Source: a virus (lineage: Duplodnaviria > Caudoviricetes). From it: 64,000 nucleotides of DNA. Under the pieces are notes generated by a model. That model ran no database searches. It had not been told where the DNA came from and saw nothing but the letters and a program-made list of their open reading frames with translations. Positions 13,057-40,898 of this stretch are shown here, piece by piece. Positions within the stretch are counted from its first letter, which is position 1, and each line of letters begins with the position of its first letter. Location: positions 1,180 through 65,179 of the IMG/VR virus record IMGVR_UViG_3300025689_000007. One strand, written 5' to 3'. The position numbers were made by a program, and so were the translations under genes.

Positions 13057-13806
13057 TTATATTGGTATCTTTCCTCTTATTGCTTCCATATTCAAATCCA
13101 AATAACTTCTTCCTGCCCTCTGTAAGAATGTTGCAAGAGCGCCAGGTTCTCTTTCGGTTATTGTATGATATTGATAGGAAAAAGTAACATCAAATTGGAC
13201 TAAATCATTTGTTTGATAGTCTAATTGAATTTGTCCTATGCTTTTCGGCCAGGCCCCATAAAGTTTAAAACAACAAATGGTGCTCCCTGTATCAAAACCC
13301 AAAAGATGAATATCTTGATCAACCATATAGGAAATGGGCTTACCATAGATATTACTTTGTGGATTATGAATTATTTTTTGCCACGCCCAGAATTTTGTAA
13401 GAATCTTGGCATCATTGTCAACAATAAATGTAACATTCCAATCACCATCACTTCGAACAGAGGCCATCTTGTATTTTTGTCCAACCCAGTGTGATTGTAT
13501 TTCTTCAATTGTAGAATCGGGTAAAGATGTGGATTTAACAAGATAAGGAAATTTTTTTACACTATTATTCAATAGAAAAACATCAACCGCTGTACCTCCA
13601 GCCTCAATTGCCCCCTTTGTTAAAAGATCATCTCTGGCGCCGCTTTCGAAATCCTCAACTGTTTTTGCTGTTGATAATGCACCCTCTACTCCCGCTTTTA
13701 ATATATTACTGAGATTTGGGAATTGAAGATTTACATAAAACAGATATTGTCTCGCGCCACCGAGAAATCTTGCTTTATACTCTTGAATATCAATAGGTAT
13801 TTTCAT
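13057..13806 (-). CDS. tail tube paralogue (gp19 fold, possible gp54 role)
   Basis: F.GGARQYLFY...LP.S......W.G..Y......GDW.VTF..D...GAWPK.IG...LDY...FDVTF.Y. Confidence 0.7.
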   Translation of the reverse strand: MKIPIDIQEYKARFLGGARQYLFYVNLQFPNLSNILKAGVEGALSTAKTVEDFESGARDDLLTKGAIEAGGTAVDVFLLNNSVKKFPYLVKSTSLPDSTIEEIQSHWVGQKYKMASVRSDGDWNVTFIVDNDAKILTKFWAWQKIIHNPQSNIYGKPISYMVDQDIHLLGFDTGSTICCFKLYGAWPKSIGQIQLDYQTNDLVQFDVTFSYQYHTITEREPGALATFLQRAGRSYLDLNMEAIRGKIPI

Positions 13807-14522
13807 ATCGTCATTATCCCCGTTAGTTTTTCATATCCTCTCTTTATTGCGTCCGCTATTTTTGTAGATGGTTTTGTCTCTAATCTCATTTTATAAAATG
13901 TAAAAACTACATTCATTGTTAAGAGTTCGGACGAGGCATAATCAAAAGTAATATTACCAACTGATTTTGGCCAGCATTTTTCCAATACAAAAGATTTTAC
14001 AACATTTCCTGAATAATCTATCATATGAACTTCCTGATCTTGCATATATTGTGTAGAGTTCGCTCTATCGTGTTCTCTTTTTATACTTCTCCCACTTTTT
14101 AATTCTGACAACGAATTTTGAATTATATTTTGCCAGCTATACATTCTCTCTATAATGTCTCCATTAATGTCAACATTCATATCAACTGACCAATCACCGT
14201 ACTTTCTATAGCCCGCAATTTTATAATCAAGACTTTGCCAGGGAATTGGAATTTCATCAAACATTGATTCTGGAATTGTTGTTGATCTTATAAGATAAGG
14301 CCACTTATCAAAATCAGATCCTAACCCAAATGTTGTAAGTGCACTATCTGCTGCAGGAACAAACCATTTTTTCCATCCATCATTTGTTGATAATACTCCT
14401 GTTTTCCCCATTTCTCTACTAATTCCAGCTGGCAATTTTAAGAGAATATAGAATAAAAATTGTCTTGATCCACCGGTAAATCTTGTGCGATATGTATCAA
14501 CATCAAATAAAATCCGTGGCAT
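13803..14522 (-). CDS. tail tube paralogue (gp19 fold, possible gp54 role)
   Basis: Same gp19 motifs (GGSRQFLFY, YGDWSV, CWPKSVG..FDY). Confidence 0.7.
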   Translation of the reverse strand: MPRILFDVDTYRTRFTGGSRQFLFYILLKLPAGISREMGKTGVLSTNDGWKKWFVPAADSALTTFGLGSDFDKWPYLIRSTTIPESMFDEIPIPWQSLDYKIAGYRKYGDWSVDMNVDINGDIIERMYSWQNIIQNSLSELKSGRSIKREHDRANSTQYMQDQEVHMIDYSGNVVKSFVLEKCWPKSVGNITFDYASSELLTMNVVFTFYKMRLETKPSTKIADAIKRGYEKLTGIMTI

Positions 14523-14631: not shown

Positions 14632-15177
14632 TTATCCGAAAGTTACTCCAGTGCCATAAGTCACATTATCAGCAACATGATAAATGTAAGTAAATGTCAT
14701 ATCAAACTGGACAACATCATTAGCAGAGTAGTCCAATGTGGCCGTTCCGACCGATTTTGGCCATGCGCCAAAAAGTTTATACTTCATAATTGGCTTACCA
14801 TCGTAACCTAAAAGTTCGAGCTGCTGGTCAGCCATATAAAGATTCGGTGCGGTGTAAATATTTGTTGTTGGGTCGTGAACAAGCTGCGCCCATTGCATAA
14901 ACATTTGCTGAATTTTCGCATCGATATCCACATTAAAAGTAACTGTCCAATCACCGTATGTGTACTTTCCGGCAAATTTAAAATCGAATCCTTGCCAATT
15001 TGTCAGGATTTCGTCCGATGTTGTTTCAGGCAGGTTTGTTGACCTTACAAGGTAAGTTGCCTTTTCAGTATCTCCCCCTGCAATACTAATAGGAAATATC
15101 GGTTTATAATAAAATAAGTATTGTCTTGCTCCACCCTGAAATGATGCCCTATAACTATCAATATCAAATCTTGGCAT
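14632..15177 (-). CDS. gp19: tail tube protein
   Basis: Directly after the sheath gene; LP......I...W.G..FKFAG..TY.DWTVTF..D, GAWP..VG...LDY...F..TF.Y. Confidence 0.9.
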   Translation of the reverse strand: MPRFDIDSYRASFQGGARQYLFYYKPIFPISIAGGDTEKATYLVRSTNLPETTSDEILTNWQGFDFKFAGKYTYGDWTVTFNVDIDAKIQQMFMQWAQLVHDPTTNIYTAPNLYMADQQLELLGYDGKPIMKYKLFGAWPKSVGTATLDYSANDVVQFDMTFTYIYHVADNVTYGTGVTFG

Positions 15178-16990: not shown

Positions 16991-17491
16991 TTACCCGATT
17001 TCGTATCTATCATATATAAATGTTGCGCTGGCTTCCAGAACAGCCCCCCCCTCTCTTGTTGAGAGAGTAATCTCTCCAAGTTGTTGAATCCAGACATTTT
17101 TAAAGTTAATTGCCATTATTTTTCTACTAAAATTATCGGTTATTTGGAGAGAAGCATCAACAACCATATTATTTGGTAAGACACCAAACTTATCCTTGTT
17201 ATTATTTATATAAAATATCCAGTTTGCAAGCGCTTTCCAGTTTCTAAATTCCGAATCTACAATGAAATTTACTGTCCAAGAATCAAAAACCAGTTTCCCA
17301 ACCTGTAATTGAAGTTTACCACCCTGCCAAGGAGACTCTGCTTGATCTAAAGACAAGCCAGGAATAACTGTGCCAAACAGGTTCAACTCAAGTTCTGCAG
17401 TAGCCGCACGGGATGTTTCCGATGGAAGAGTTGGAAACTTTAATCTAAAATTAGAGGGGGTTGCCCTATGTATGTTTACTGTTATTGCCAT
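16991..17491 (-). CDS. gp3: tail tube terminator/completion protein
   Basis: P.NF.L..P, ..PG.SL, KL.FD...V.F.VD....NW..L..W, F.N.W...LG......F.Y..Y. Confidence 0.75.
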   Translation of the reverse strand: MAITVNIHRATPSNFRLKFPTLPSETSRAATAELELNLFGTVIPGLSLDQAESPWQGGKLQLQVGKLVFDSWTVNFIVDSEFRNWKALANWIFYINNNKDKFGVLPNNMVVDASLQITDNFSRKIMAINFKNVWIQQLGEITLSTREGGAVLEASATFIYDRYEIG

Positions 17492-18302: not shown

Positions 18303-18635
18303 TTACGCTGGGCCGGGATTTTCTTCCTGTTTTTTCTTGATAATTTCCTCAACATCACTTATAGCCGTGTTTATTGACAATATCTTGCCATGTATCCTTA
18401 CTGCTTTATAGCCTTGCATTTTCCAGCTTTTGAGTTTAATCAATATTTGCATTTTAGTCATATTATTCCACATTGAATTTGGAATTTCCTTTACTTTTTC
18501 TTCAAAGAGATACTTTTCCAAAAGTTTATCTACTTTATTCATTGCTACTTTTTCTTCTCTTTCTTTTCCGGTCATTTCCTCTTTATCGGTTCTTCTCCAA
18601 TGTAAAGTTTGCTCTTGAAAATTCAAGGCGGTCAA
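18303..18635 (-). CDS. small hypothetical protein with CTS-like motif
   Basis: True start probably internal (ATG 18575 or 18542): MNKVDKLLEKYLFEE. Confidence 0.5.
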   Translation of the reverse strand: MTALNFQEQTLHWRRTDKEEMTGKEREEKVAMNKVDKLLEKYLFEEKVKEIPNSMWNNMTKMQILIKLKSWKMQGYKAVRIHGKILSINTAISDVEEIIKKKQEENPGPA

Positions 18636-19725
18636 CCAATTTCAATATATTACCTGATCTATCAATAACACAAAAACCTTCTGGTTTTGCTACATTGTAA
18701 CCTTCCCCACTACGGATAAATGTTCCTATATTGCTGATTTCACTGAACTTTCTGACAAATATATCTTTCAACCTGATGAAAATCAAATAAAGATATAGTA
18801 ATCCCATTATTTCTTTCTTATATTTAGTTAGAAAATGATGCGCAGAATCTATCATTTCCCTTCTTTTCTGTTTTGCTTCTGGTGATTTCACCTGTTCTGC
18901 TTGTTTCTCATATTTGTCCTTTATGAATATCATAAAATCATCATAGTAAAGTGATACGGAGCGGAGAGCGTTTGCCTTCTTGATGTTTTCGTTGTGGAAT
19001 ATCATGAATAATTGATATAGCCCGAAGCTTTTCATCTTTTTGAAAATATCTTCCTTGATATATTTCGCAACCCGCTCTGCTTCTGAAATCAGTTCATTTA
19101 TCCTGTCAATTTCCGGCTTGGAGAAGTTTACTGTGCCGGATTCATCCCTGAAATAGGCATCCTGAAGCCAGACATTTGGATTATTAAAATACCTTGATAC
19201 ATCTATATTAAATTTGGCCGAAAGCGTATCAAGTGTATCTCCTGTGTATTCCGTGTGAACGACAATACCCATTTTGGCTTTATTGATCCTGTTTGCAAGG
19301 TCTGAACCGTCATTTGGTATAGCATAGGTTATTGTATTCGGTGTAAAAGTAATATATGGCATTCCGTTGATATTCTCTATTTTCTTATCATCTGTAAAAA
19401 GAAGATCTCCCTGATAAATTGTTTTCACTCCCAATTCTGATAGATACTTCAGGGAAGTTTTCAGCTTAGCTGCCAGACCAGGCGCATGACCGAAATATTC
19501 ATTTACATCTTTATAATTATATGCAAGTTTCGGTGTCTTGTTGAAAATGGCTTTCGTAGAAACAAAGAATTTTCCATTTTCTGGATTAATACCAAAAAAC
19601 ACTGCTGGGCTATTATGAATAAGAATATATACATCACCGGCTTTTACATAAAAATTCTGATTATGTGTTGTCATATCACATTCTGGATATTTCTGTTTTA
19701 TCTTATTCACTTTTTTGACTTTCAT
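18583..19725 (-). CDS. split intein C-half (38 aa) fused to the C-extein of a conserved T4-like ligase-like protein
   Basis: MKVKKVNKIK...CDMTTHNQNFYV...ILIHN then Ser+1 of SPAVFFGINPENGKFFVSTKAIFNKTPK; QGDLLFT and PEGFCV...LKLVDRLEF further on. Confidence 0.88.
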   Translation of the reverse strand: MKVKKVNKIKQKYPECDMTTHNQNFYVKAGDVYILIHNSPAVFFGINPENGKFFVSTKAIFNKTPKLAYNYKDVNEYFGHAPGLAAKLKTSLKYLSELGVKTIYQGDLLFTDDKKIENINGMPYITFTPNTITYAIPNDGSDLANRINKAKMGIVVHTEYTGDTLDTLSAKFNIDVSRYFNNPNVWLQDAYFRDESGTVNFSKPEIDRINELISEAERVAKYIKEDIFKKMKSFGLYQLFMIFHNENIKKANALRSVSLYYDDFMIFIKDKYEKQAEQVKSPEAKQKRREMIDSAHHFLTKYKKEIMGLLYLYLIFIRLKDIFVRKFSEISNIGTFIRSGEGYNVAKPEGFCVIDRSGNILKLVDRLEFSRANFTLEKNR

Positions 19726-19809
19726 ATTCTATAAGCCCTTTCAGTTTTTCAGATTGGAAAAATGTTTTTTCATCATCATATTTACAAAAAGAGATGGTTA
19801 TCTTCCCAT

Positions 19810-20868
19810 TTATTCGGTTTCTTTTATATTATCATTTTCATTCAATTCTATAGCCTTCACCCAACCCCTATTGATTGTATAAAATTCGTGATCCTCTGTA
19901 ACTATTATTTTATCACCATTTTCCAACTCAACTTCTACCCAATTTTTATTATTATGATTTATTCTTGGTTTTATTGCTAAATTCAACTCATCAATACCCT
20001 TATCAAAATTATAAGTAAAAACTTCCACATCATTTTTACCAAGAATCTCTTTCATTTTCATATCACCGTTTTTCGTCTTGATTATTGTATCTGGATGAAT
20101 ACAACCATCCCATTTCACTGTGATAGCCGCCTTTGATTTCGATCCACCGGAAAGTGTATCACGAATGAGTTTGGCTAATTCGATATTCTTTTCTATACCA
20201 TTCACGCCGTTGTTAAACATATTATCCTCAAAATGTTCTATATGCCGATTTATATCTTCATTGAGCACTTCTTGAATGGTATATATTCTTTGTTCCTTGA
20301 AGATTTGGCCTCTGACATTTCCAGGCCTTCCAATGGTTGCCCTGAGAAATTCCCTGAATTTCTCAAACCACTCCTTATTATCCAATCCCCTCGCTACATT
20401 TCTTTTATACTCCTCGAAGTCATTTTCTCCGATAGCCTTTCTTACCTTAGATGCAGAAATATCTTCTGCTGTTCTCTTGATTTCATCAAAGATTACATTG
20501 TAATCCACTCCGATAAACTGTTTTTTATAGTCTTCAATCCTGTCAGAACCGGCTATGATTGCAACACCATTGCTTGTTTCAATGTTTTCCTGTTTAATAA
20601 TATCTGGAATATAACCGTGAGAAGATAAAATCGGATGTGCTTTCGGGTTCGTTATCTTGAGAATGGATTTTCTCTGATTGTATGTAAGGAAATTTTTGGC
20701 GAGTTTTGAGGATTTCTCTCCCTCGATGATAAAAATGTATACCTTTGAATATTTCTTGAGAGAGTCTTCAATAATTTTTTGGTGGGCTTTTGTGGGTGGT
20801 GACATTCTACCTATAAAAATACCCACCGCTCGTGACTTCTGTTCTGTAATGTAATTTGAAAATCTCAT
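19810..20868 (-). CDS. HxGH nucleotidyltransferase (cytidylyltransferase-like) plus ligase-like N-part, ending in a split intein N-half (97 aa)
   Basis: GRMSPPTKAH, IAGSDR, ISASKVR motifs; HIEHFED...ITVKWDG, then CIHPDT.I...VTEDHEFYT..GWV.A.EL to the stop. Start reassigned to MRFSNYITE at 20868. Confidence 0.85.
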   Translation of the reverse strand: MRFSNYITEQKSRAVGIFIGRMSPPTKAHQKIIEDSLKKYSKVYIFIIEGEKSSKLAKNFLTYNQRKSILKITNPKAHPILSSHGYIPDIIKQENIETSNGVAIIAGSDRIEDYKKQFIGVDYNVIFDEIKRTAEDISASKVRKAIGENDFEEYKRNVARGLDNKEWFEKFREFLRATIGRPGNVRGQIFKEQRIYTIQEVLNEDINRHIEHFEDNMFNNGVNGIEKNIELAKLIRDTLSGGSKSKAAITVKWDGCIHPDTIIKTKNGDMKMKEILGKNDVEVFTYNFDKGIDELNLAIKPRINHNNKNWVEVELENGDKIIVTEDHEFYTINRGWVKAIELNENDNIKETE

Positions 20869-20934: not shown

Positions 20935-21255
20935 TTATCTCTTCATTCCCTCCAGATCTCTCATCAGAGTGCTCCTTTCGTGTTTCTCCCACATATCAAT
21001 TTCATAATTCATTTGTTTGATTATTTCATCCGGAATACCAAGTTTTTTTCCCGTTTTAGTGTTTACATCTTTTTTTATTTTCACCATCCTGTCAAAGTTT
21101 TTGAGGGCTTGATCTGGCTCATCCCTATATGTGTCAAAGATCTTTTTGCGAATAACCTCAAGATCTTTGATAGATGTCTTTACAAGATATTTTCCCTTTT
21201 CCAACCAATCCCTGTCTTTGTTAAATTCTTTGAAAATTTCTTCTATCTTATTCAT
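20935..21255 (-). CDS. hypothetical protein
   Basis: Probable start MNKIEEIF at 21255, with an ATGA overlap with the upstream gene. Confidence 0.55.
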   Translation of the reverse strand: MNKIEEIFKEFNKDRDWLEKGKYLVKTSIKDLEVIRKKIFDTYRDEPDQALKNFDRMVKIKKDVNTKTGKKLGIPDEIIKQMNYEIDMWEKHERSTLMRDLEGMKR

Positions 21256-21611
21256 ATGCTTTTCAGTTCCCCCGTTTTTGCCAAGTATAGAGTTATTGCC
21301 CATATATCAGCTCTTATGTTCTCTGGTACTTGACGAACATCACCTTTATATTTTAATTCTCTCTCAACATACTTCTGTATTTTCTGTTCCTCATCTGGAC
21401 TTTTATCCAATATTTTTATATATTCATTCCATAGTTTATTATCTATATCTCCGAGCATTGATGAAAGCCTTCTTGCATCATCAATACTTTTTGCTGTTGC
21501 AATTTTGAACATAAATTTTGTCAGATCCCGCATACCAATTGCTTCTGTCAATGCCATTAAATCACTTTTTCTGTAGAGATATTTGTCAATAAGATTGTCT
21601 ATCTTTTTCAT
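21252..21611 (-). CDS. hypothetical protein with CTS-like N-terminus
   Basis: MKKIDNLIDKYL start; coupled to its neighbours. Confidence 0.6.
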   Translation of the reverse strand: MKKIDNLIDKYLYRKSDLMALTEAIGMRDLTKFMFKIATAKSIDDARRLSSMLGDIDNKLWNEYIKILDKSPDEEQKIQKYVERELKYKGDVRQVPENIRADIWAITLYLAKTGELKSI

Positions 21612-21874: not shown

Positions 21875-22237
21875 TTATAGCTTGCCCCCACCATATTTTT
21901 TGAATGCCTCTTTTTTCTTTTTGTCTATCACAGCCTGTTTTATTTTGGGATTTCTTTCCAGCTTATCAGCAAACCACCTAAGCGTATCAAATATTGGATC
22001 TTTATCGTCATATTCACCCACTTTCCTTATCCAAAACCAAAAATCATCTTCTTCATCGGCGAGAACCAGCTTTGCGTTGAAGGACAATTGTTCCAAGTTT
22101 TTCTCAAAATCATTCTCTATTTTTATTATCTCATTATCTGCCTTTACCAGAAGATTTCTGATTTCATCCCATTCTGGTTGCTTTTTGTATGTCTCTTCGC
22201 TCAAATATCTCTCAATCTTCTCGTCTATTCTTTTCAT
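21875..22237 (-). CDS. hypothetical protein with CTS-like N-terminus
   Basis: MKRIDEKIERYLSEE start. Confidence 0.6.
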   Translation of the reverse strand: MKRIDEKIERYLSEETYKKQPEWDEIRNLLVKADNEIIKIENDFEKNLEQLSFNAKLVLADEEDDFWFWIRKVGEYDDKDPIFDTLRWFADKLERNPKIKQAVIDKKKKEAFKKYGGGKL

Positions 22238-22536: not shown

Positions 22537-22773
22537 CTATTCAGAAATATTTTCTTTATCATTCAAATATTTTCCAAATTTCATTTCTTCCTTCAGACCA
22601 TATTTTTTGAGAATGGCTCTCGCCTGTTCTTTGGTCATACCACCCATTATCCTTGCCATTACATCATTCATTTTCAATGTTTTTCTGGCCATGGCTATTT
22701 GATGTTTTACAAATGGATCTGTTGGCATCTTCTTGATCAAATACTTTTCAATTTTCTCATCTATTTTTTTCAT
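22537..22773 (-). CDS. hypothetical protein with CTS-like N-terminus
   Basis: MKKIDEKIEKYL start; ends in TAG. Confidence 0.55.
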   Translation of the reverse strand: MKKIDEKIEKYLIKKMPTDPFVKHQIAMARKTLKMNDVMARIMGGMTKEQARAILKKYGLKEEMKFGKYLNDKENISE

Positions 22774-24758: not shown

Positions 24759-24983
24759 TTATTCCCCAGCCTCTATTTTATCTTCAATGTCCTTCTTCAT
24801 TGCTGTCAACATTTCAATAGCATTGTCAATGAAGGTAAATACCATTTTGTCATTATAATTCAGATATGATCGCTCAAGGGATTTCAATATATCCATTACT
24901 CTATGAATATTAACGGGAACTTTTGCAAGAGGGTGTCTACTCCCAATATCGTCGTTCAATAGTTTGCTCATCTTTCTATCCAT
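24759..24983 (-). CDS. hypothetical protein
   Basis: 74-aa ORF tightly packed between neighbours. Confidence 0.5.
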   Translation of the reverse strand: MDRKMSKLLNDDIGSRHPLAKVPVNIHRVMDILKSLERSYLNYNDKMVFTFIDNAIEMLTAMKKDIEDKIEAGE

Positions 24984-25357
24984 TCACTATCCACGGCTTC
25001 CCAAAAGGCATCAACAATAGGATGTGATGTTCGTTCTTTTGGTTTCATAACATATTCTCTAACCAGTTTTTGATACATATCCTTGAAAAAATTATCAACT
25101 GAATTTTGTGATATGCCCCACGCACCCTCGGCCTCCGCGTTTGCTTTATCTATTTCTTCTATAACATCTTCTATTGCCTTTCTAAATTGAAAAACCATCT
25201 TTTTCTTCGCTTCTAATAGTATTTCTTTGGCCCTTTCTACTTCTTTATCAATAATGTTTTCAATTACATTATAGGTCAACCTTATTTCGGCTCTTGCCCG
25301 GCTTTCTGGTGTGATGACTTCTCCTAAATATTCCTCAATTTTCTTGTCTATAGACAT
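24968..25357 (-). CDS. hypothetical protein with CTS-like N-terminus
   Basis: Probable start MSIDKKIEEYLGE at 25357. Confidence 0.55.
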   Translation of the reverse strand: MSIDKKIEEYLGEVITPESRARAEIRLTYNVIENIIDKEVERAKEILLEAKKKMVFQFRKAIEDVIEEIDKANAEAEGAWGISQNSVDNFFKDMYQKLVREYVMKPKERTSHPIVDAFWEAVDSEWIER

Positions 25358-25460
25358 ATTCTCTATTGGCAAACATCATTCCCCTATTAAATACCACCGC
25401 CATTTTCATTTCTATTGTTTCTTCGTTTAAAAAGTTATTGATTTTCCTCTCAATAGACAT
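25335..25460 (-). CDS. 41-aa ORF with CTS-like N-terminus (below the ORF-track cutoff)
   Basis: SD GGGGG then MSIERKINNFLNEETIEMKMAVVFNRGMMFANREYVYRQEN; its 5' end resembles that of the next gene at DNA level. Confidence 0.4.
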   Translation of the reverse strand: MSIERKINNFLNEETIEMKMAVVFNRGMMFANREYVYRQEN

Positions 25461-25507: not shown

Positions 25508-28069
25508 TTAATTAATTAATTTACCAGTTCTTGAAAGCCAGCTCCAATCCTCTGCAATCGGTTCAATATCACTTAAAACACCCCAAACATCGTCCTCTAT
25601 TTCTGTCTTTTTGATCTCAAATGATTCTTCCAGCATATCGGTTGTGGTAAAATAACATCCCCAGTATAAGGCTGTAATAAGGTCATCTGGCATATCTTTC
25701 CCAAAAAATTTACCTTCTTTTTCAATAAATGTGGATATTTGGTCCACAGTATCATAATCAACTATTGTCAAACTACCATCTTCCACAAGCTTTTTCATAA
25801 GCATGACGGCTCTTGGCTTGGTTCTGCGATCTGCTCTTACTCCTAAATCCTTTGTTTTTGAGCCAGAATTAACAAGACCGGGGTTTTCATACTCCCACCA
25901 TAGCCTTGTTACAACAGTTGAGCCCTCTGCATTGTTCTCCGCCATAATAAAGGCTGAATTATAATAGATTGATGTCCTATTTACAATGTCCGCAAATGTA
26001 TAAACATCAATATAATTATCATTGAATGTCGCTACTTGTTGCAATATAATTGGTTTGACCTGAACAATTTTCAATACCTGCATAGTAGAATAATTTTCTC
26101 CTGTTCCCTTTGCTGTGTCAACACCAATAACATAAACCGCCTTTTCTACTGGTTTTTCGTATATTTTGAGTTTCCCATTGGCCTGTTCAACTATCGGTCT
26201 GGTGCATTTGTCATATAATTTTTCAATAATGTCGGAATCTATAACTGTATTTGTAGAACCAAGAAATTCACATTCATATTCCTGTATAAATTTCTGTTTA
26301 CCAAGATTCTTTCTCTGGTCCGAAGCCCATTTCCTGTCTCTGCCCGGAACATCCTTCCAAGTTGATTTGATAGCAACGAAAGTGTTTTCCTTTCTTTCTG
26401 CTTGAGTATAAAGCCTGTGATATAGATTGAACATACCATTTGGTGTGGAAATGATAACAACTCTGGACTCTGATGAGGCGGCAATTGTAGGAAGGTTGGA
26501 TGACCAGAACTCTTCCGCCTTGTTTTTCTGAACGAAAGCAAACTCGTCAAGTATCAGGAGATTTATAGTTCTACCACGGAAAGAATCGGGAGATGTAGCT
26601 GATACCATAATTTTTGAGCCATTATCAAAATTTACGAATGTTTTGGAATATTCCTGAACGCCCGGTTTCAACCAGACGGGAAGCTCCTCATACATTATTT
26701 TCAGGCGGGAAAGAATGTCAATAGCCGATATCTGTTTATTAGACGCAATTCCAACGATTTTATCGGGATTAAATATTGCATACCAGAGAGCGTATGCACA
26801 TACGGTAGTCGTATTATGTGTTGGTATCATCGTTTTTCCACAAAGGAAAAGATGTTCATCATTGTCTACCTGTATACATTTTACAGGAACAGAATTAACC
26901 TTTATGATATTTTTGATGTATATTCTTGTATTTTTATCATGTCCAAAACATTTTGTTTGTCTATCTTTTTTTCTGGAAAGATTGAAAACAGAGAACCGTG
27001 TTGTGGAAAAAACAAGTGAATGATATCTTTCTCCATTTATAACTCTGTAATTCAATTTTGTTTTTATTCCAATAGATGAAAAAATTTCTCTTATATCTTC
27101 TATAAGAGTTGAAGATTTTTGAGAGAACTCACAAACCCCATCTTTCCCACAATAACCATTTGTGTCCATGAGACCTCGTATAAGTTCAAGTTTCTGATTT
27201 ATAGAAGCTGAAAAATATACTTTTGGTATATGTTTATTATTGATGAGATTAATTTTCCTCAAATCAATCATTAATTTATAAACATTAAAATACCCCCCAT
27301 TCTCATTTCTCCAATCTTTTTTAAAAGATGATGTTAAATACTTTTCCTGTATTATTTTGGAAATCTCATTATAGTCATTTATAGATGTAGATATTCTTCC
27401 ATTTACTAAATGACCTTCCCCCAACCATATACCAAGAATATATGGGTCTACGGGCAATTCAATATCGTCATTCACCACACCAGAGTGATAATTGATATAA
27501 TAAGAATGAGATGTATTACTGAATTTATCAAAAATTTCTTTTGTTGTAAGAACTCTTTCTTCGTGAGTTGTTCTTGGATTGTCTTGACTATTTTTATGAC
27601 CAAAATTTGATGAACCCACACACCATAAATGTTCCTCATCAACAACTATTCTTTCTCCATTGTCAAATTCAATCTCATAACAATTATGATTTTCCATAAC
27701 TTCTGTTACAAAAACAACTTTTGTGGGCTTACCATCCCTCCCAATGAGAAAATCCCCCACTTGAACATCACCTATCGTTGTCCATTTACCATTGGGTTGA
27801 GGCAAGGGAGTATCAAGAGCAAGTGCTTTTCCAGACTGCCTGCTCCAAAGACCAATGACAAATCTTTCATCTTGTAAAATTTTTAGAATTTTTCTCTGAT
27901 AAGGATACGGCTCAAATGCTATTCTTCCCCTATCAGGATGAATAATTTTAACATATTTCAGGAACTCCCATATATCTTGAGAGCATTTAGACAATGCGGC
28001 TACTTCTTCTGGTGAATATGAATATTCCTGAAGCGGCCTTTTTATAAAATCATCATATTTTACTGGCAC
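25508..28069 (-). CDS. gp17: terminase large subunit with intein
   Basis: Walker A SRQSGK/T split by an intein, Walker B LLILDEFAF, STPNG.FN.Y, F.QEYECEF.GS, and nuclease motifs GVDTA.G.G.NYS, AENN..G, DDL..AL. Confidence 0.97.
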   Translation of the reverse strand: MPVKYDDFIKRPLQEYSYSPEEVAALSKCSQDIWEFLKYVKIIHPDRGRIAFEPYPYQRKILKILQDERFVIGLWSRQSGKALALDTPLPQPNGKWTTIGDVQVGDFLIGRDGKPTKVVFVTEVMENHNCYEIEFDNGERIVVDEEHLWCVGSSNFGHKNSQDNPRTTHEERVLTTKEIFDKFSNTSHSYYINYHSGVVNDDIELPVDPYILGIWLGEGHLVNGRISTSINDYNEISKIIQEKYLTSSFKKDWRNENGGYFNVYKLMIDLRKINLINNKHIPKVYFSASINQKLELIRGLMDTNGYCGKDGVCEFSQKSSTLIEDIREIFSSIGIKTKLNYRVINGERYHSLVFSTTRFSVFNLSRKKDRQTKCFGHDKNTRIYIKNIIKVNSVPVKCIQVDNDEHLFLCGKTMIPTHNTTTVCAYALWYAIFNPDKIVGIASNKQISAIDILSRLKIMYEELPVWLKPGVQEYSKTFVNFDNGSKIMVSATSPDSFRGRTINLLILDEFAFVQKNKAEEFWSSNLPTIAASSESRVVIISTPNGMFNLYHRLYTQAERKENTFVAIKSTWKDVPGRDRKWASDQRKNLGKQKFIQEYECEFLGSTNTVIDSDIIEKLYDKCTRPIVEQANGKLKIYEKPVEKAVYVIGVDTAKGTGENYSTMQVLKIVQVKPIILQQVATFNDNYIDVYTFADIVNRTSIYYNSAFIMAENNAEGSTVVTRLWWEYENPGLVNSGSKTKDLGVRADRRTKPRAVMLMKKLVEDGSLTIVDYDTVDQISTFIEKEGKFFGKDMPDDLITALYWGCYFTTTDMLEESFEIKKTEIEDDVWGVLSDIEPIAEDWSWLSRTGKLIN
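26813..27826 (-). mobile_element. class 3 (Ala1) intein with LAGLIDADG-type domain, 338 aa
   Basis: Starts ALALDTPLP and ends IPTHN/T; W in block B (EEHLW), C in block F (VKCIQV), T in block G (PTHN); endonuclease motifs LGIWLGEG and IRGLMDTNG. Confidence 0.9.
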
Positions 28070-36530: not shown

Positions 36531-36944
36531 TTACTTCCCCCTCAGTGTTTTTATCTTGCCTTCAATTTCATTTTCAAAAATTGTCAATCCCTTTATGATG
36601 TGCTTGTAAGCATCGGCTATATTCTCGTATTCGTCCATTTCAAACAGACCATCTCGCCACATTGCTTTGAGGGAATTGAGATTTGTTTCAAATTCTTTAT
36701 TAGTTTTCCTTACGAAGGAAAGTATATTCATAAGAGCCACAATGGCTCTTGGAATGTCTGCTTCTGTTAGTTGTTTCGATTCTGGAAAAGATATCATACC
36801 GGTATAGGTGGGACCCGCTCCAATGTACTTGTTCATTACATCGTATGCCCTGTTCTTGGCTTTTTTCTTTGCCTTAAGAAGCTCGGGTGATTTTTTCTGA
36901 AGAAGATCGTCTATTTTTTCCTCTTTTAAATCATTCTTATCCAT
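36531..36944 (-). CDS. hypothetical protein
   Basis: Coupled to gp21 by a TAATG overlap. Confidence 0.55.
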   Translation of the reverse strand: MDKNDLKEEKIDDLLQKKSPELLKAKKKAKNRAYDVMNKYIGAGPTYTGMISFPESKQLTEADIPRAIVALMNILSFVRKTNKEFETNLNSLKAMWRDGLFEMDEYENIADAYKHIIKGLTIFENEIEGKIKTLRGK

Positions 36945-37582
36945 TATTTTATCCTCTTTTCAATATCAGAAATAACTTGCCAAATTTTTCTGTAATATGC
37001 TTCTTGTGCTTCTTTCAAGGAGATTTTTGGCTCTTCAATCACAGACTCGGGTTCTTCAACGACCCTTTTCTGTGGCGGTTCAAAATCCTGGCCTTCATAG
37101 ATACCATTCACCCAAGATGGATGATTTGACGGGTCTGTGACCATATCCCAAGTGATGAGATAAAAATCCTCATTGACATAACCGTTCTCGTTCACGGAGC
37201 CAAGACCACGGGAAGAAATACCCATTCTACCCTCTTTGATAAGAGTCTTTGCAATATTTCCCATTGGTGTATCAAGAACTTTTGACCTACCAATGACATT
37301 TGGGCCATCCCATTCCAATTTCTCTGTCAGGATAGCAATTTTATCCGGATTGATCTCTGGATTTGGTGGATGCCCAAGTTCTCCCCAAAGACTCCTGTTT
37401 ACCAGTCTCTCTTCCAGCTTACTAATTTCTCTCTCAAGAATATGTCTTGAATATATTCTTTTATTGTTGTTCTCTTGATCTGCCGTACTGTAAATTCCAG
37501 TAATGTAGAGAGACTTCTCCTTCTTTTCAGACTCCTCCACAATAAATTTAATATCGTGAGAGAGCTCGGTTATAAGCTTCAT
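36944..37582 (-). CDS. gp21: prohead core protease
   Basis: MKLITE, N.NKRIY, GELGHP, G..K.LDTPMG.I.K.L, GISSRGLGS, D.V.DPS. Confidence 0.96.
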   Translation of the reverse strand: MKLITELSHDIKFIVEESEKKEKSLYITGIYSTADQENNNKRIYSRHILEREISKLEERLVNRSLWGELGHPPNPEINPDKIAILTEKLEWDGPNVIGRSKVLDTPMGNIAKTLIKEGRMGISSRGLGSVNENGYVNEDFYLITWDMVTDPSNHPSWVNGIYEGQDFEPPQKRVVEEPESVIEEPKISLKEAQEAYYRKIWQVISDIEKRIK

Positions 37583-37653: not shown

Positions 37654-38001
37654 TTACTCTTCACCACCAACCGTCTTGAGAATACGAATGGGCGTGGTCT
37701 TGATAACATTGATAACCTGTGCAATTCTCTGATTGTTGGGGTACTTTACTACAAGTTCGTGTGCAAGAGACATGGCCTTCGCAAACTTTTCTGGTGTATT
37801 TGCCATTGTGAGATAATATTTCAATCTTTTGAGGCCCTGTGTAATACTGCCTGCATCCCTTGTGGGATCATAGGTGCCGGGAACAGATCCTCCTACAGGC
37901 GGGTAAAGCTTCTGATCGCCTGCCGAAAATTCCTGTGGCTTTGGCTCATCAAAAACCGCTTCTTTCAAATACATATCAATTTTTTCTTCGATCTTCTTCA
38001 T
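37654..38001 (-). CDS. hypothetical protein with CTS-like N-terminus
   Basis: MKKIEEKIDMYLKEA start. Confidence 0.55.
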   Translation of the reverse strand: MKKIEEKIDMYLKEAVFDEPKPQEFSAGDQKLYPPVGGSVPGTYDPTRDAGSITQGLKRLKYYLTMANTPEKFAKAMSLAHELVVKYPNNQRIAQVINVIKTTPIRILKTVGGEE

Positions 38002-38209: not shown

Positions 38210-38479
38210 TTATTTTTTAGCCGCTTTCTCTCTTTCTCTTTCGGCTTTTGCTCTTTCCTGATAACTCTCTATTCTTTTTTGCAGAGACTCAATATGTGCC
38301 GTTCCTCTCTTGCGAATCTGCTCTTTCTTGTCAGAATCATCCGTATCTTCAATCGCTTTTCTCATCAATTTACGGGAGTCCCTTATTTGTTTTTGCAAAA
38401 GTTGAATAGTATCAGAATAATCTGCTTCTACAAGACTAAGATACTTGTTCATAATTCTGTCAATCTTCATTAGATACAC
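38210..38479 (-). CDS. hypothetical coiled-coil protein with CTS-like N-terminus
   Basis: MKIDRIMNKYLSLVEA start. Confidence 0.55.
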   Translation of the reverse strand: MYLMKIDRIMNKYLSLVEADYSDTIQLLQKQIRDSRKLMRKAIEDTDDSDKKEQIRKRGTAHIESLQKRIESYQERAKAEREREKAAKK

Positions 38480-40898
38480 CTCTGATATATTTATAATTAT
38501 TTATATATTTTTCTACAAGAATTTCTGTATTTCTGTTCCACGGATATTTGTAGGAGGCTTTTTGTAGTCTTTGTTTTTTCTTGGCCTCCTTCTCCGCTGC
38601 TTTCTTCTCGGCCCTCGCCGCGGCCCTTTGCTCCGGTGTGGTCAAATATATACGCCTTTTATTGAATCCAGCATTCAAACCTTGTACTCTTGAACCGTAT
38701 GGCCTCCAGCCTAATTTCCACAGTTTGAGATTTATAGTACCATCTTCGTATGTATTTGTTTCAGAGTGATATTCTCCATTTATATACTCCTGATGATTAT
38801 GTTCCAACATCTCCAACCCATTTGATGTCTGAAGAACATGAGAAAATGTTATTGCACTCATAAAACAATTCGGACCTGATAATGTATCTGGATCGCCCTT
38901 TCTTGCTGGCATACCCAATACCATTCTAGCATTATCATATCCAATGACATCTGATAATTTATCATAGTCCACAAGTTCTCTCATTCTTTTGGTATATATT
39001 CTATCCAACTTTTCCCTGGCTGATTCTGATGCCGCCAAAACACCTTTTTTCGCAATAGTTTCAGCCGTCGCTTCTTTATATTCTTTTACCAATTTATAAA
39101 ATTTATCCATATCCTTTATAGCCTTATCAATGCCGCCGCTATTTTTAAGAATGGCATCAAATTCTTTTCTATCATCAATTATGGAGTCCTTGACACCTAT
39201 TGTATATCCATTTTCCCCCGGCCGTGATTTCAACAATTCTCTCTTCTTTGGGTCTTTATGATATAGACAATACTTTGAAGCCTCGCCCGGGAATCCATAA
39301 GAGCTAAAATCTCCCTTCTTTCCATATTTTATACTAACAGATTGAATTTTTTCTATTTTTGTTCCCTTCCTTGTAATCTTCAGCTTATCGCCTGATGGGA
39401 AATTTCCGGCTGATGGAAGATATACTTCTTTCCCCCGTGCAATTTCTGTATCATACAGAGCCATTTCGGCAAAATTTTTCATAACAGATTCAGCCGCGTC
39501 TTTATCAATTTCTGATAATTTACAGGCCAAAGTTGCATATGAATCACCTACTGCCTTTTCTGCATCTGCTGATGGTATTGATTTTTCATTATCAACAATT
39601 TCTAACATTCTGGTCTTATGTGCTTTGAGTTCTGCAACAAATTCTTTTTTCAATTTCCCAGCTTTAACAAGTTTTTCAGAGGCTTCAATTGTTCTATCAA
39701 GTGCTTTATTATTTGAAACAGAGTGCTTGAGATATTCCAAGGAGTTCTTCCCTCCCTTATTATCAATCGGGTTTCCCTTATCATCTATTGGCATATATAA
39801 TTTTTTGAAACCAGGCTCCAATGCGGCCAGAGGGCCCTCGGAAAATATTTCTGCAACATATTTATTGTCTTTAGCATCAAGTCCTGTCATTCCTAAATTT
39901 GGTTTTGATGATGTAGAAAGTGTCTTTGTTTTTCCTTCTTCACCTACTTCTGCCTTTAAAAATACACCGATATCCTCAAAATATTTTGCTATATTCCGTG
40001 CAACCAGGCCGGAGCCTATGAGTTTCTTACTATCGTGATGTAATTCACCAACAAGATCAACATTCAATACTCCAGTTGCTCCTATACGCAATCCAAAATC
40101 ATTCTTGATTTTTTCTGCTTTAGCTTTCTTTTCTGATGGCTTCGCTTTGTCAAGATTTATAAGTTGCTGTAAAAGATCGTCATATATTTGTTTTATTTCT
40201 TTACCTTTCACATGCATTTTGAGAAGTTTATTGGTTTTGATCTTGTCGCTGATATAAGATACATTAGACTTCATATCAGAAGTAGGAACTTCCTTTTCTT
40301 TGGTGGGCTTCTTCTCTGGCTTTTCTGGTTTTTTCTCTTTCTCTTTTGTGGGCTTCTTTTCAATAATATTTTTCCAATGATTATGAACATCAGCAACCCA
40401 AGAAGGAACAATTCCACCATATTTTTTAACAATGGAGTTGAGAAATTCCTTGGCGGCTTCTGGTTTCATTGCATCAACTACATCATGAAGCCTTGAAGAT
40501 TTCCTATCATCGGGAATATTGGATGCTTCGATTTTATCAAATGCGGGAATTTTTATACTATCATCTTTTTTGATAGGCTCCGTAGTACCTTTTGCTTCTT
40601 CATCCTTTTCGTGAGCAATTGGTTTGGAGGCTTTGTCTTTAAGCTTGATGATATTATCTTTTACTGCCTGAGCATATACACCTTCTGGAGATCTCTGTAT
40701 TACATAATTCTGTTCGCCTGGTGACCAGCTATTCCATTTTTTAATTTGTTCTGGTTTTATCTTATTTTTAGGCCTTTCCTCGGATTTTGGTTCCGGTTTT
40801 ATTACACTTTTTTGTTTGGGAACAAGTTTCTTTGCCTCAAAAATTTGATCCAGAAATTCTTCATTTACTTGATGGAAAAAATTTCTAAGTTTCATCAA
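38460..40898 (-). CDS. large Lys-rich hypothetical protein, possible PD-(D/E)xK-like domain
   Basis: 812 aa directly after the portal gene; KP-rich linkers; FPSGDKL...VSIKY motif. Confidence 0.5.
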   Translation of the reverse strand: MMKLRNFFHQVNEEFLDQIFEAKKLVPKQKSVIKPEPKSEERPKNKIKPEQIKKWNSWSPGEQNYVIQRSPEGVYAQAVKDNIIKLKDKASKPIAHEKDEEAKGTTEPIKKDDSIKIPAFDKIEASNIPDDRKSSRLHDVVDAMKPEAAKEFLNSIVKKYGGIVPSWVADVHNHWKNIIEKKPTKEKEKKPEKPEKKPTKEKEVPTSDMKSNVSYISDKIKTNKLLKMHVKGKEIKQIYDDLLQQLINLDKAKPSEKKAKAEKIKNDFGLRIGATGVLNVDLVGELHHDSKKLIGSGLVARNIAKYFEDIGVFLKAEVGEEGKTKTLSTSSKPNLGMTGLDAKDNKYVAEIFSEGPLAALEPGFKKLYMPIDDKGNPIDNKGGKNSLEYLKHSVSNNKALDRTIEASEKLVKAGKLKKEFVAELKAHKTRMLEIVDNEKSIPSADAEKAVGDSYATLACKLSEIDKDAAESVMKNFAEMALYDTEIARGKEVYLPSAGNFPSGDKLKITRKGTKIEKIQSVSIKYGKKGDFSSYGFPGEASKYCLYHKDPKKRELLKSRPGENGYTIGVKDSIIDDRKEFDAILKNSGGIDKAIKDMDKFYKLVKEYKEATAETIAKKGVLAASESAREKLDRIYTKRMRELVDYDKLSDVIGYDNARMVLGMPARKGDPDTLSGPNCFMSAITFSHVLQTSNGLEMLEHNHQEYINGEYHSETNTYEDGTINLKLWKLGWRPYGSRVQGLNAGFNKRRIYLTTPEQRAAARAEKKAAEKEAKKKQRLQKASYKYPWNRNTEILVEKYINNYKYIRGVSNED
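38488..38505 (-). promoter_or_regulatory. tandem late promoter motifs
   Basis: TATAAATA at 38488-38495 and 38498-38505, just upstream of the 38210 gene. Confidence 0.55.

Follow-up and report, generated by a model that had tools for sequence, protein, structure and literature searches.

Gene layout and split intein

We analyzed a 64,000-nucleotide (nt) stretch of IMGVR_UViG_3300025689_000007, an uncultured T4-related phage (hereafter the window; coordinates are window positions). Two adjacent open reading frames (ORFs) in the window almost certainly represent the halves of one gene, whose predicted product is a single spliced protein with an HxGH nucleotidyltransferase domain and a DUF6267 domain. 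ORF-N (19810-20868, minus strand) encodes 352 amino acids (aa), starts at an ATG that is also used by relatives, and is closed by a TAA at 19810-19812. ORF-C (18583-19725, minus strand) encodes 380 aa in the same frame and begins at a start codon of its own, preceded at a distance of about 10 nt by an AAAGGG stretch; all genes around the two ORFs also run on the minus strand. The 84-nt spacer between them (19726-19809, minus strand) carries four in-frame stops (TAA, TAA, TGA, and TAG), and therefore neither read-through nor a sequencing slip accounts for the layout. Pfam searches placed CTP_transf_like at aa 17-144 of ORF-N (E 5e-8, above the cut-off), followed by positions 1-47 of the DUF6267 profile at aa 207-255 (E 1.8e-9) and an intein splicing domain, and assigned positions 47-376 of the DUF6267 profile to ORF-C (E 1.1e-85).

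A mini-intein is split between the two ORFs as 97 and 38 aa. The N-intein (19813-20103, minus strand) begins with Cys1 directly after the sequence KWDG, contains the block B motif T-x-x-H, and matches Pfam Intein_splicing with an E value of 1.3e-8 and 35.2 bits, slightly below the 35.8-bit cut-off. The C-intein (19612-19725, minus strand) ends in HN and is followed by a nucleophilic Ser at position +1, from which the C-extein (18586-19611, minus strand; 342 aa; stop codon at 18583-18585) continues the DUF6267 domain. Together with a colinear intein-free allele in relatives, which lacks the N-intein, these features are those expected of a split intein. Joining the exteins by script gave a protein of 597 aa (68.9 kDa, pI 9.3) that shares 83% identity over 596 positions, with one gap, with an uninterrupted 596-aa protein of a close relative (L005). 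The junction is exact, with KWDG-APAVFFG in intein-free homologues and KWDG-intein-SPAVFFG in the window. Trans-splicing of the two halves may thus be proposed from these sequence features.

In the numbering of the spliced protein, the conserved motifs are PPTKAH (24-29), ISASKVR (137-143), KWDG (252-255), YQGDLLF (321-327), PEGFCVID (565-572), and LKLVDR (578-583). All motifs named in the original prediction (TKAH, ISASKVR, KWDG, QGD, EGFCV, and LK) were found on the minus strand at the positions that it had given. Its placement of the intein directly after the KxDG lysine motif was likewise borne out by the intein boundaries and by the intein-free alignment, and therefore neither half alone holds the complete predicted active site.

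The HxGH nucleotidyltransferase domain

The HxGH (cytidylyltransferase-like) nucleotidyltransferase domain spans aa ~12-175 (20344-20835, minus strand) and scores 33.7 bits with Pfam PF01467, against a gathering cut-off of 21 bits. We modeled an intein-free two-domain homologue, P0004, with a predicted local distance difference test score (pLDDT) of 76. A Foldseek search with this model retrieved NadM/NMNAT and PPAT structures at E values of 4e-6 to 1e-4, with a template modeling (TM) score of ~0.7 to small enzymes; the matches covered the HxGH domain only, and nothing was returned for DUF6267. We further aligned the window domain with those of its relatives and with the "cytidylyltransferases" of S-SZBM1, S-CREM2, HTVC008M, and S-PM2. 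Residues G20, R21, P24, P25, H29, K58, N59, G107, D109, R110, S138, A139, S140, and R143 are invariant in this alignment. The window clade has T-x-A-H where the cyanophages have H-x-G-H, and the second His is invariant throughout. The Pfam match, the fold search, and the invariant catalytic motifs agree with the domain assignment made originally.

Comparison with NMNAT (NadM, NadR, and archaeal forms) and PPAT revealed a shared PF01467 assignment, a Rossmann-like fold with a TM score of 0.7, and the motifs GR-x-x-PP-(H/T)-x-(G/A)-H and SAS-x-x-R. In contrast to these enzymes, the first His is replaced by Thr and the Gly by Ala in the window clade, and the window domain has a leader at its N terminus and a ligase-like domain as its fusion partner. 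The window protein also scores far under every NCBIfam cut-off for NMNAT or PPAT; the NMNAT models are the nearest, with a best score of 26.6 bits against a cut-off of 403, which does not support membership in an NCBIfam NMNAT family. On these sequence grounds, the domain is an HxGH enzyme, unproven as an NMNAT. The domain would transfer a nucleoside monophosphate (NMP) to a phosphate-bearing acceptor, with the conversion of nicotinamide mononucleotide (NMN) to nicotinamide adenine dinucleotide (NAD+) as the nearest model.

The N-terminal leader and proposed head loading

The spliced protein is probably head cargo. Its first nine residues, MRFSNYITE (20842-20868, minus strand), end in I-x-E and resemble a capsid-targeting sequence, as had been pointed out before. 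The T4 capsid-targeting sequence is MKTYQEFIAE (PMC8442874), in which residues 4 and 7 serve targeting and residues 8 and 10 serve cutting by gp21 (PMC9026906). The window leader presents F3, Y6, I7, and E9 in the T4 order of aromatic, aromatic, aliphatic, any residue, and Glu, one residue shorter than in T4, and so resembles the T4 sequence at its key residues. Relatives start like the window protein, and among 144 cluster representatives of DUF6267 the leader pattern was found in 36 in the strict T4 register and in 56 in a looser form (25-39%). The leader stays at the extreme N terminus whichever of HxGH or DUF6267 comes first, and the leader region is disordered in the models of both P0004 and P0011, the latter being a stand-alone DUF6267 protein.

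Orthologues that carry the leader have been detected in virions. S-SZBM1_140, an HxGH orthologue with 26% identity, starts with MRFRQFIIE and was reported in the S-SZBM1 virion proteome with 2 peptides (PMC9146016); its leaderless DUF6267 neighbor is absent from the virion list of that phage. S-CREM2 gp154 starts with MKNFSSFLTE, in exact T4 register, and is annotated as a virion protein with 3 peptides (PMC10665884). The window itself encodes a gp21-type prohead protease (Peptidase_S77; 36944-37582, minus strand; E 1.4e-28, above the cut-off). The inter-domain linker (20245-20343, minus strand), which has low pLDDT in the homologue model, holds the hydrophobic-x-Glu site VLNE at aa 201-204, and of 27 fused or N-extended homologues, 26 have such a site no more than 10 residues ahead of the DUF6267 core. 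The site is compatible with a second cut separating the two enzymes, and equally with a structural element.

The gene lies between the neck proteins (gp13/gp14-like) and the genes for sheath stabilizer, tube, and sheath, within a block of late neck and tail genes that share its strand, and the order is the same in the relative L011. The cyanophage module instead lies in the replication block. Late expression of the window gene would be expected from its position.

In comparison with the known T4 capsid cargo (IPI-III and Alt, which bear a capsid-targeting sequence cut by gp21), the window protein shares the order of leader residues, a gp21-type protease in the same genome, a basic mature protein, and orthologues detected in virions. 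The differences are that the window cargo would be a 69-kDa two-enzyme fusion with a leader one residue shorter, and that loading, cutting, and ejection are predicted for the window phage. Since the leader is present on the N-half alone, entry of the ligase-like part into the head would require prior splicing or intein docking.

The strongest alternative, which we consider rather unlikely, is that the same spliced bifunctional enzyme acts in the infected cytoplasm only, the N-terminal peptide being an ordinary part of the HxGH enzyme, such as an oligomerization or partner-binding helix. The hydrophobic-x-Glu stretch that recurs in 26 of 27 fused forms may be structural, and in cyanophages the module is surrounded by genes for replication and nucleotide metabolism. 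Either the Glu or the entire leader is missing from HTVC008M gp130 and from several fused forms, and co-purification has been raised by the authors of a virion proteome. Against this alternative, the leader is disordered in both models, resembles the T4 targeting determinants position by position, and remains extreme N-terminal whichever domain leads. In addition, leader-bearing orthologues appear in two independent virion proteomes, with the leaderless neighbor not listed, and the window gene sits within the late neck and tail block. These observations favor head loading of the spliced protein.

Two further sets of genes touch on this subject. In S-SZBM1 (L017), genes 136, 139, and 140, which lie around the DUF6267/HxGH pair, are all in the published virion proteome; gene 139 encodes 457 aa and is without family assignment. 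In the window, no fewer than nine short ORFs encode proteins of 41-129 aa, many of them with a pI of 9-9.8, that share nearly the same ~14 N-terminal residues, of the type MKKIDEKIEKYL-x-E. The ORFs are located on the minus strand at 25335-25460, 24968-25357, 22537-22773, 21875-22237, 21252-21611, 20935-21255, 18303-18542, 37654-38001, and 38210-38470. The MKKIDEKIEKYL-x-E motif is enriched ~8-fold at N termini (7 of 26 occurrences), and the ORFs show no mutual similarity past residue 16 (best E 0.028) and no Pfam or PHROG matches. Two of these ORFs lie between the portal and the prohead protease, which is the place of gp67/gp68 in T4. From their sequences, the small ORFs look like genes for internal-protein-like head cargo that have the leader alone in common.

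DUF6267 as a putative RNA-ligase-type domain

The second domain begins with the N-terminal part of DUF6267 (20104-20244, minus strand), which runs from a HIEHFED motif to KWDG with the putative catalytic Lys252, and is completed by the C-extein. The C-extein contains a motif III-like block, PNTITY, HTEY, motif IV (EGF), motif V (K-LVDR), and a helical insert of ~130 aa. We modeled P0011 with 102 diverse representatives of the family (at most ~40% identity). The AlphaFold2 model has a pLDDT of 90 and a predicted TM score of 0.86, with residues 1-22 disordered. A structural search of 48,161 Protein Data Bank (PDB) representatives with this model returned RNA ligases as all of the ten best matches, with Z-scores of 6.4-8.7 over 173-200 aligned residues. 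The matches included NgrRnl (Z 8.7, 186 aligned residues), TbREL1 (Z 7.9), T4 Rnl2 (Z 7.7), Trl1 (Z 7.4), T4 Rnl1 (Z 7.0), and archaeal RNA ligases together with a putative Aquifex ligase of the same type (Z 6.4-6.7). DNA ligases came next at Z ~6, and in every case it was the adenylyltransferase domain of the ligase that was matched. In the BFVD viral library, the first matches outside DUF6267 were phage RNA ligases.

Analysis of the 102 diverse members showed that K68, D70, G379, and K391 (P0011 numbering) are invariant along with a small number of other positions, K68 corresponding to Lys252 in the window, and that the motif IV Glu is conserved in at least 90% of the members. Motif I reads TK-F/W-DGS in DUF6267 and TK99-E-DGS in T4 Rnl1. 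The distance from the motif IV Glu to the motif V Lys is 13 residues in both proteins (E378-G...K391 in DUF6267 and E227-G...K240 in T4 Rnl1). QGD and PNTITY were assigned to motifs III and IIIa, respectively, by order only. Features specific to the family are an N-terminal H-x-E-H-x-E-D motif and the helical insert of ~130 residues before motif IV. Taken together with the fold search, the conserved motifs support the ligase-like second domain that had been proposed. A ligase-superfamily fold with Lys252 as the catalytic residue is likely from the model, and a lysyl-NMP intermediate would be expected on Lys252.

The closest known enzymes are ATP-dependent RNA ligases that lack a C-terminal oligonucleotide-binding (OB) domain, namely Naegleria NgrRnl/Rnl5, Trypanosoma brucei REL1, T4 Rnl2, T4 Rnl1, and the ligase domain of fungal Trl1. 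DUF6267 shares with them the KxDG motif I with its invariant Lys and the absence of a C-terminal OB domain, and shares with T4 Rnl1 the spacing of motifs IV and V. It differs in having no detectable sequence-profile relationship to these enzymes, in the insert, which separates the central sheet from motif IV, in the extra conserved N-terminal motif, in a motif V of K-L-V-D-R rather than K-x-K, and in its constant link to an HxGH enzyme. Pfam RNA_lig_T4_1 matched 4 of the 102 members weakly (best E 6e-4), and otherwise Pfam returned DUF6267 only. Searching the family profile against T4 Rnl1, Rnl2, and DNA ligase with hmmsearch gave no significant match and served for motif spacing only; phmmer against PDB sequences gave spurious matches only and reached no solved structure. 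Membership in any ligase family was thus not supported at the level of sequence profiles.

A second alternative is that DUF6267 is non-catalytic and merely shares a common alpha/beta arrangement, with a role for instance in non-covalent assembly like that of T4 gp63 (Rnl1) in tail-fiber attachment. T4 Rnl1 is indeed annotated both as an RNA ligase and as a tail-fiber attachment catalyst, the window gene is located between neck and tail-sheath genes, and the Z-scores lie under the comfort line of the search tool, with no profile-level links. This alternative is nevertheless improbable: the top ten PDB matches are all RNA ligases and fall on adenylyltransferase domains, invariance falls precisely on the Lys and Asp of ligase motif I, the Gly of motif IV, and the Lys of motif V, and the constant pairing with a second nucleotidyltransferase favors chemistry over assembly. 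DUF6267 is accordingly best described as a candidate covalent nucleotidyltransferase of the RNA-ligase type.

Distribution of the fusion and origin of the split gene

DUF6267 is very common in marine T4-related phages, with thousands of members: 6,774 of 8,000 candidates scored matched the family, and there are 2,713 cluster representatives at 50% identity. The nearest homologues of the window protein are fused HxGH-DUF6267 proteins of 584-605 aa, many of them metagenomic, and the arrangements HxGH-DUF6267 and DUF6267-HxGH-DUF5824 were both seen in other proteins. S-PM2 has the reverse order, DUF6267 followed by HxGH, in a gene that an old record splits by a frameshift. Many cyanophages encode HxGH and DUF6267 as two adjacent genes, as stated in the original prediction and exemplified by genes 141 (DUF6267) and 140 (HxGH) of S-SZBM1; in HTVC008M the two lie three genes apart with a Zeta/AAA_33 kinase between them. 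The fusion singled out in the original prediction is present in the window and is characteristic of the clade, not special to the window, being shared with its closest relatives, with metagenomic proteins, and, in reverse order, with S-PM2. In other structural respects the original prediction was largely right. The recurrent fusion in both orders is good evidence that the two enzymes work together, and their recurrence as neighbors points the same way. A metagenomic protein of 252 aa (P0154) has the leader and HxGH joined directly to just the last ~45 residues of DUF6267 (motifs IV-V); it stems either from a deletion or from faulty assembly.

A literature search for DUF6267 and "cytitidyltransferase" found no mention of either in the library searched, a megablast search of the region against 50,697 phage records gave no match, PADLOC and NCBIfam gave no match for DUF6267, and the ESM Atlas returned DUF6267 clusters only. 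An RNA-repair kit with end-healing enzymes was also considered. It is unsupported here because DUF5824 and the AAA_33 kinase are absent in four related records, one of which is 101.8 kb long and 100% complete according to CheckV; HTVC008M does have the Zeta/AAA_33 kinase.

Scanning of viral contigs for related loci yielded ten loci. In the closest of them (L005-L008 and L014, with 84% identity in the N part), the gene is uninterrupted and encodes 596 aa, and the split form is present in L009, L010, and L011 (68-69%). Between the intein halves of L011, a free-standing ORF of 247 aa (L011:9081-9824, plus strand) has an HNH-like C-terminal part. No free-standing endonuclease gene is present between the intein halves in the window, where the spacer is just 84 nt. 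The residues after the stop in the window spacer begin as in L011, of which the window retains just the first residues, and from this comparison an endonuclease gene seems to have been deleted from the window spacer, leaving a remnant of a longer one. C-halves similar to that of the window are also present in other lineages (P0003, P0045, and P0185), and those of the more distant P0045, P0185, and P0071 show that insertion at this site either happened more than once or is long-standing.

This organization resembles the "fractured genes" with split inteins and free-standing endonucleases (Dassa et al. 2009, PMC2677866) in its two adjacent ORFs, its Cys1 and HN/Ser+1 junctions, its mini-intein of 97 and 38 aa, its insertion at a catalytic motif, and, through L011, its 247-aa free-standing ORF between the halves. 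It differs in that the intervening gene is gone from the window and an 84-nt spacer is left; judged by names, and setting aside the one locus of "unknown function" in that paper, HxGH-DUF6267 is not among the enzymes named there. It is highly improbable that the split gene is a decaying remnant that lost its endonuclease gene, its splicing, and its function, as the short spacer with four stops and the intact gene of the closest relatives might suggest, given that both halves are full-length open frames with all extein and intein motifs intact, that L009-L011, at 68-69% identity, and further lineages such as P0045 and P0185 have retained the split layout, and that ORF-C has its own start codon behind an AAAGGG stretch.

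Other genes in the window

Outside the locus, searches of the flanking small ORFs against Pfam and PHROGs gave no match, and no PolX-like neighbor was seen among the ORFs there. Four paralogous tail-tube genes, all assigned to phrog_45, are located on the minus strand at 16991-17491, 14632-15177, 13803-14522, and 13057-13806, and the sheath gene lies between the first and the other three, which is unusual for a T4-type tail module. An ORF at 38460-40898 (minus strand), located between the portal gene and the prohead-core and protease genes, encodes a lysine-rich protein of 812 aa with no Pfam match, which may be a large head-internal or ejection protein. The ORF of the terminase large subunit (25508-28069, minus strand) encodes 853 aa, ~250 aa above the usual length, and contains a LAGLIDADG-like stretch, ILGIWLGEGH, at about 27400-27450 (minus strand); its sequence suggests that this ORF holds a further intein with a homing endonuclease.

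Proposed mechanism and its implications

The best explanation of the locus as a whole, to which we give a probability of roughly 60%, is a spliced, capsid-tagged enzyme that combines an HxGH nucleotidyltransferase with an RNA-ligase-type domain. ORF-N and ORF-C would be translated separately, and the intein halves would associate and trans-splice, yielding one basic 69-kDa protein with the HxGH nucleotidyltransferase at its N terminus and the DUF6267 domain at its C terminus. The ligase-type active site would form only upon splicing or tight intein association, and DUF6267 would then act as a covalent nucleotidyltransferase of the RNA-ligase type, in which Lys252 of KWDG is predicted to accept the nucleotidyl group, to seal or adenylylate 5'-phosphate ends of nucleic acids, most likely RNA. 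The nine-residue leader would serve as a T4-type signal for capsid targeting and processing. The protein would accordingly enter the prohead core, where the gp21-type protease would trim it after ITE9 and possibly cut it again at VLNE204 in the linker, releasing the two enzymes. It would then be ejected into the host with the DNA.

Several observations weigh against this explanation. The HxGH motif of the window is T-K-A-H, with a clade-specific change of Gly to Ala, and the leader is one residue shorter than that of T4. The virion detections each comprise 2-3 peptides, and the S-CREM2 study warns of possible co-purification (PMC10665884). Because a similar hydrophobic-x-Glu stretch occurs internally as well, before the DUF6267 core, such a stretch may belong to the enzyme itself instead of acting as a signal. 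Perfect TATAAATA late promoters of the T4 type number 12 against 7.9 expected, which is not significant, and none is found immediately upstream of the gene. No kinase, phosphatase, or DUF5824 partner was found in the lineage. With regard to the ligase-like domain, Z-scores of 7-8.7 are modest, in a range for which the tool warns of common arrangements. In the structure comparison that had been proposed as a check, the PDB structural search led to RNA ligases, and Foldseek of the DUF6267 model against the PDB gave no match at E <= 0.001, the best being 0.17, with DNA ligases at the head of the list. Alignment of the family profile with T4 Rnl2 by hhalign gave nothing (probability 0.1), and the profile matched only low-complexity segments among PDB sequences. 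In view of the modest Z-scores and the empty comparison with Rnl2, the ligase-superfamily assignment is held as likely rather than firm, and RNA as the target is held with less confidence.

As to what such a protein would do, a role in RNA-end repair or in counter-defense of the NAD type is proposed tentatively. The enzymes would act in the first moments of infection, ahead of phage gene expression, and might reseal nucleic-acid ends or restore a dinucleotide cofactor that host defenses had destroyed. A more far-reaching proposal, which we regard as speculative, is that the phage head carries a pre-made kit of two enzymes, one of the NMNAT type and one of the RNA-ligase type (DUF6267). The kit would be packaged and active only if trans-spliced or docked, would be cut by the protease, and would act before gene expression to reseal ends or rebuild a dinucleotide cofactor. 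On that proposal, DUF6267 might represent a previously unrecognised family of the RNA-ligase type, a suggestion that is no less tentative.

The split intein at the predicted catalytic lysine would add a natural case of an active site that needs protein splicing to form. Interpreted as an enzyme of the RNA-ligase type that is coupled to an HxGH nucleotidyltransferase, DUF6267 acquires a testable chemistry, as does its partner. If the leader loads heads, the capsid-targeting system of T4 would also cover enzymes from cyanophages, pelagiphages, and related uncultured phages, and the "cytidylyltransferases" in cyanophage virion proteomes would be explained. If the protein is injected, the pair of ligase-type and NMNAT-type enzymes would constitute a new kind of early-acting cargo, possibly one that serves counter-defense.

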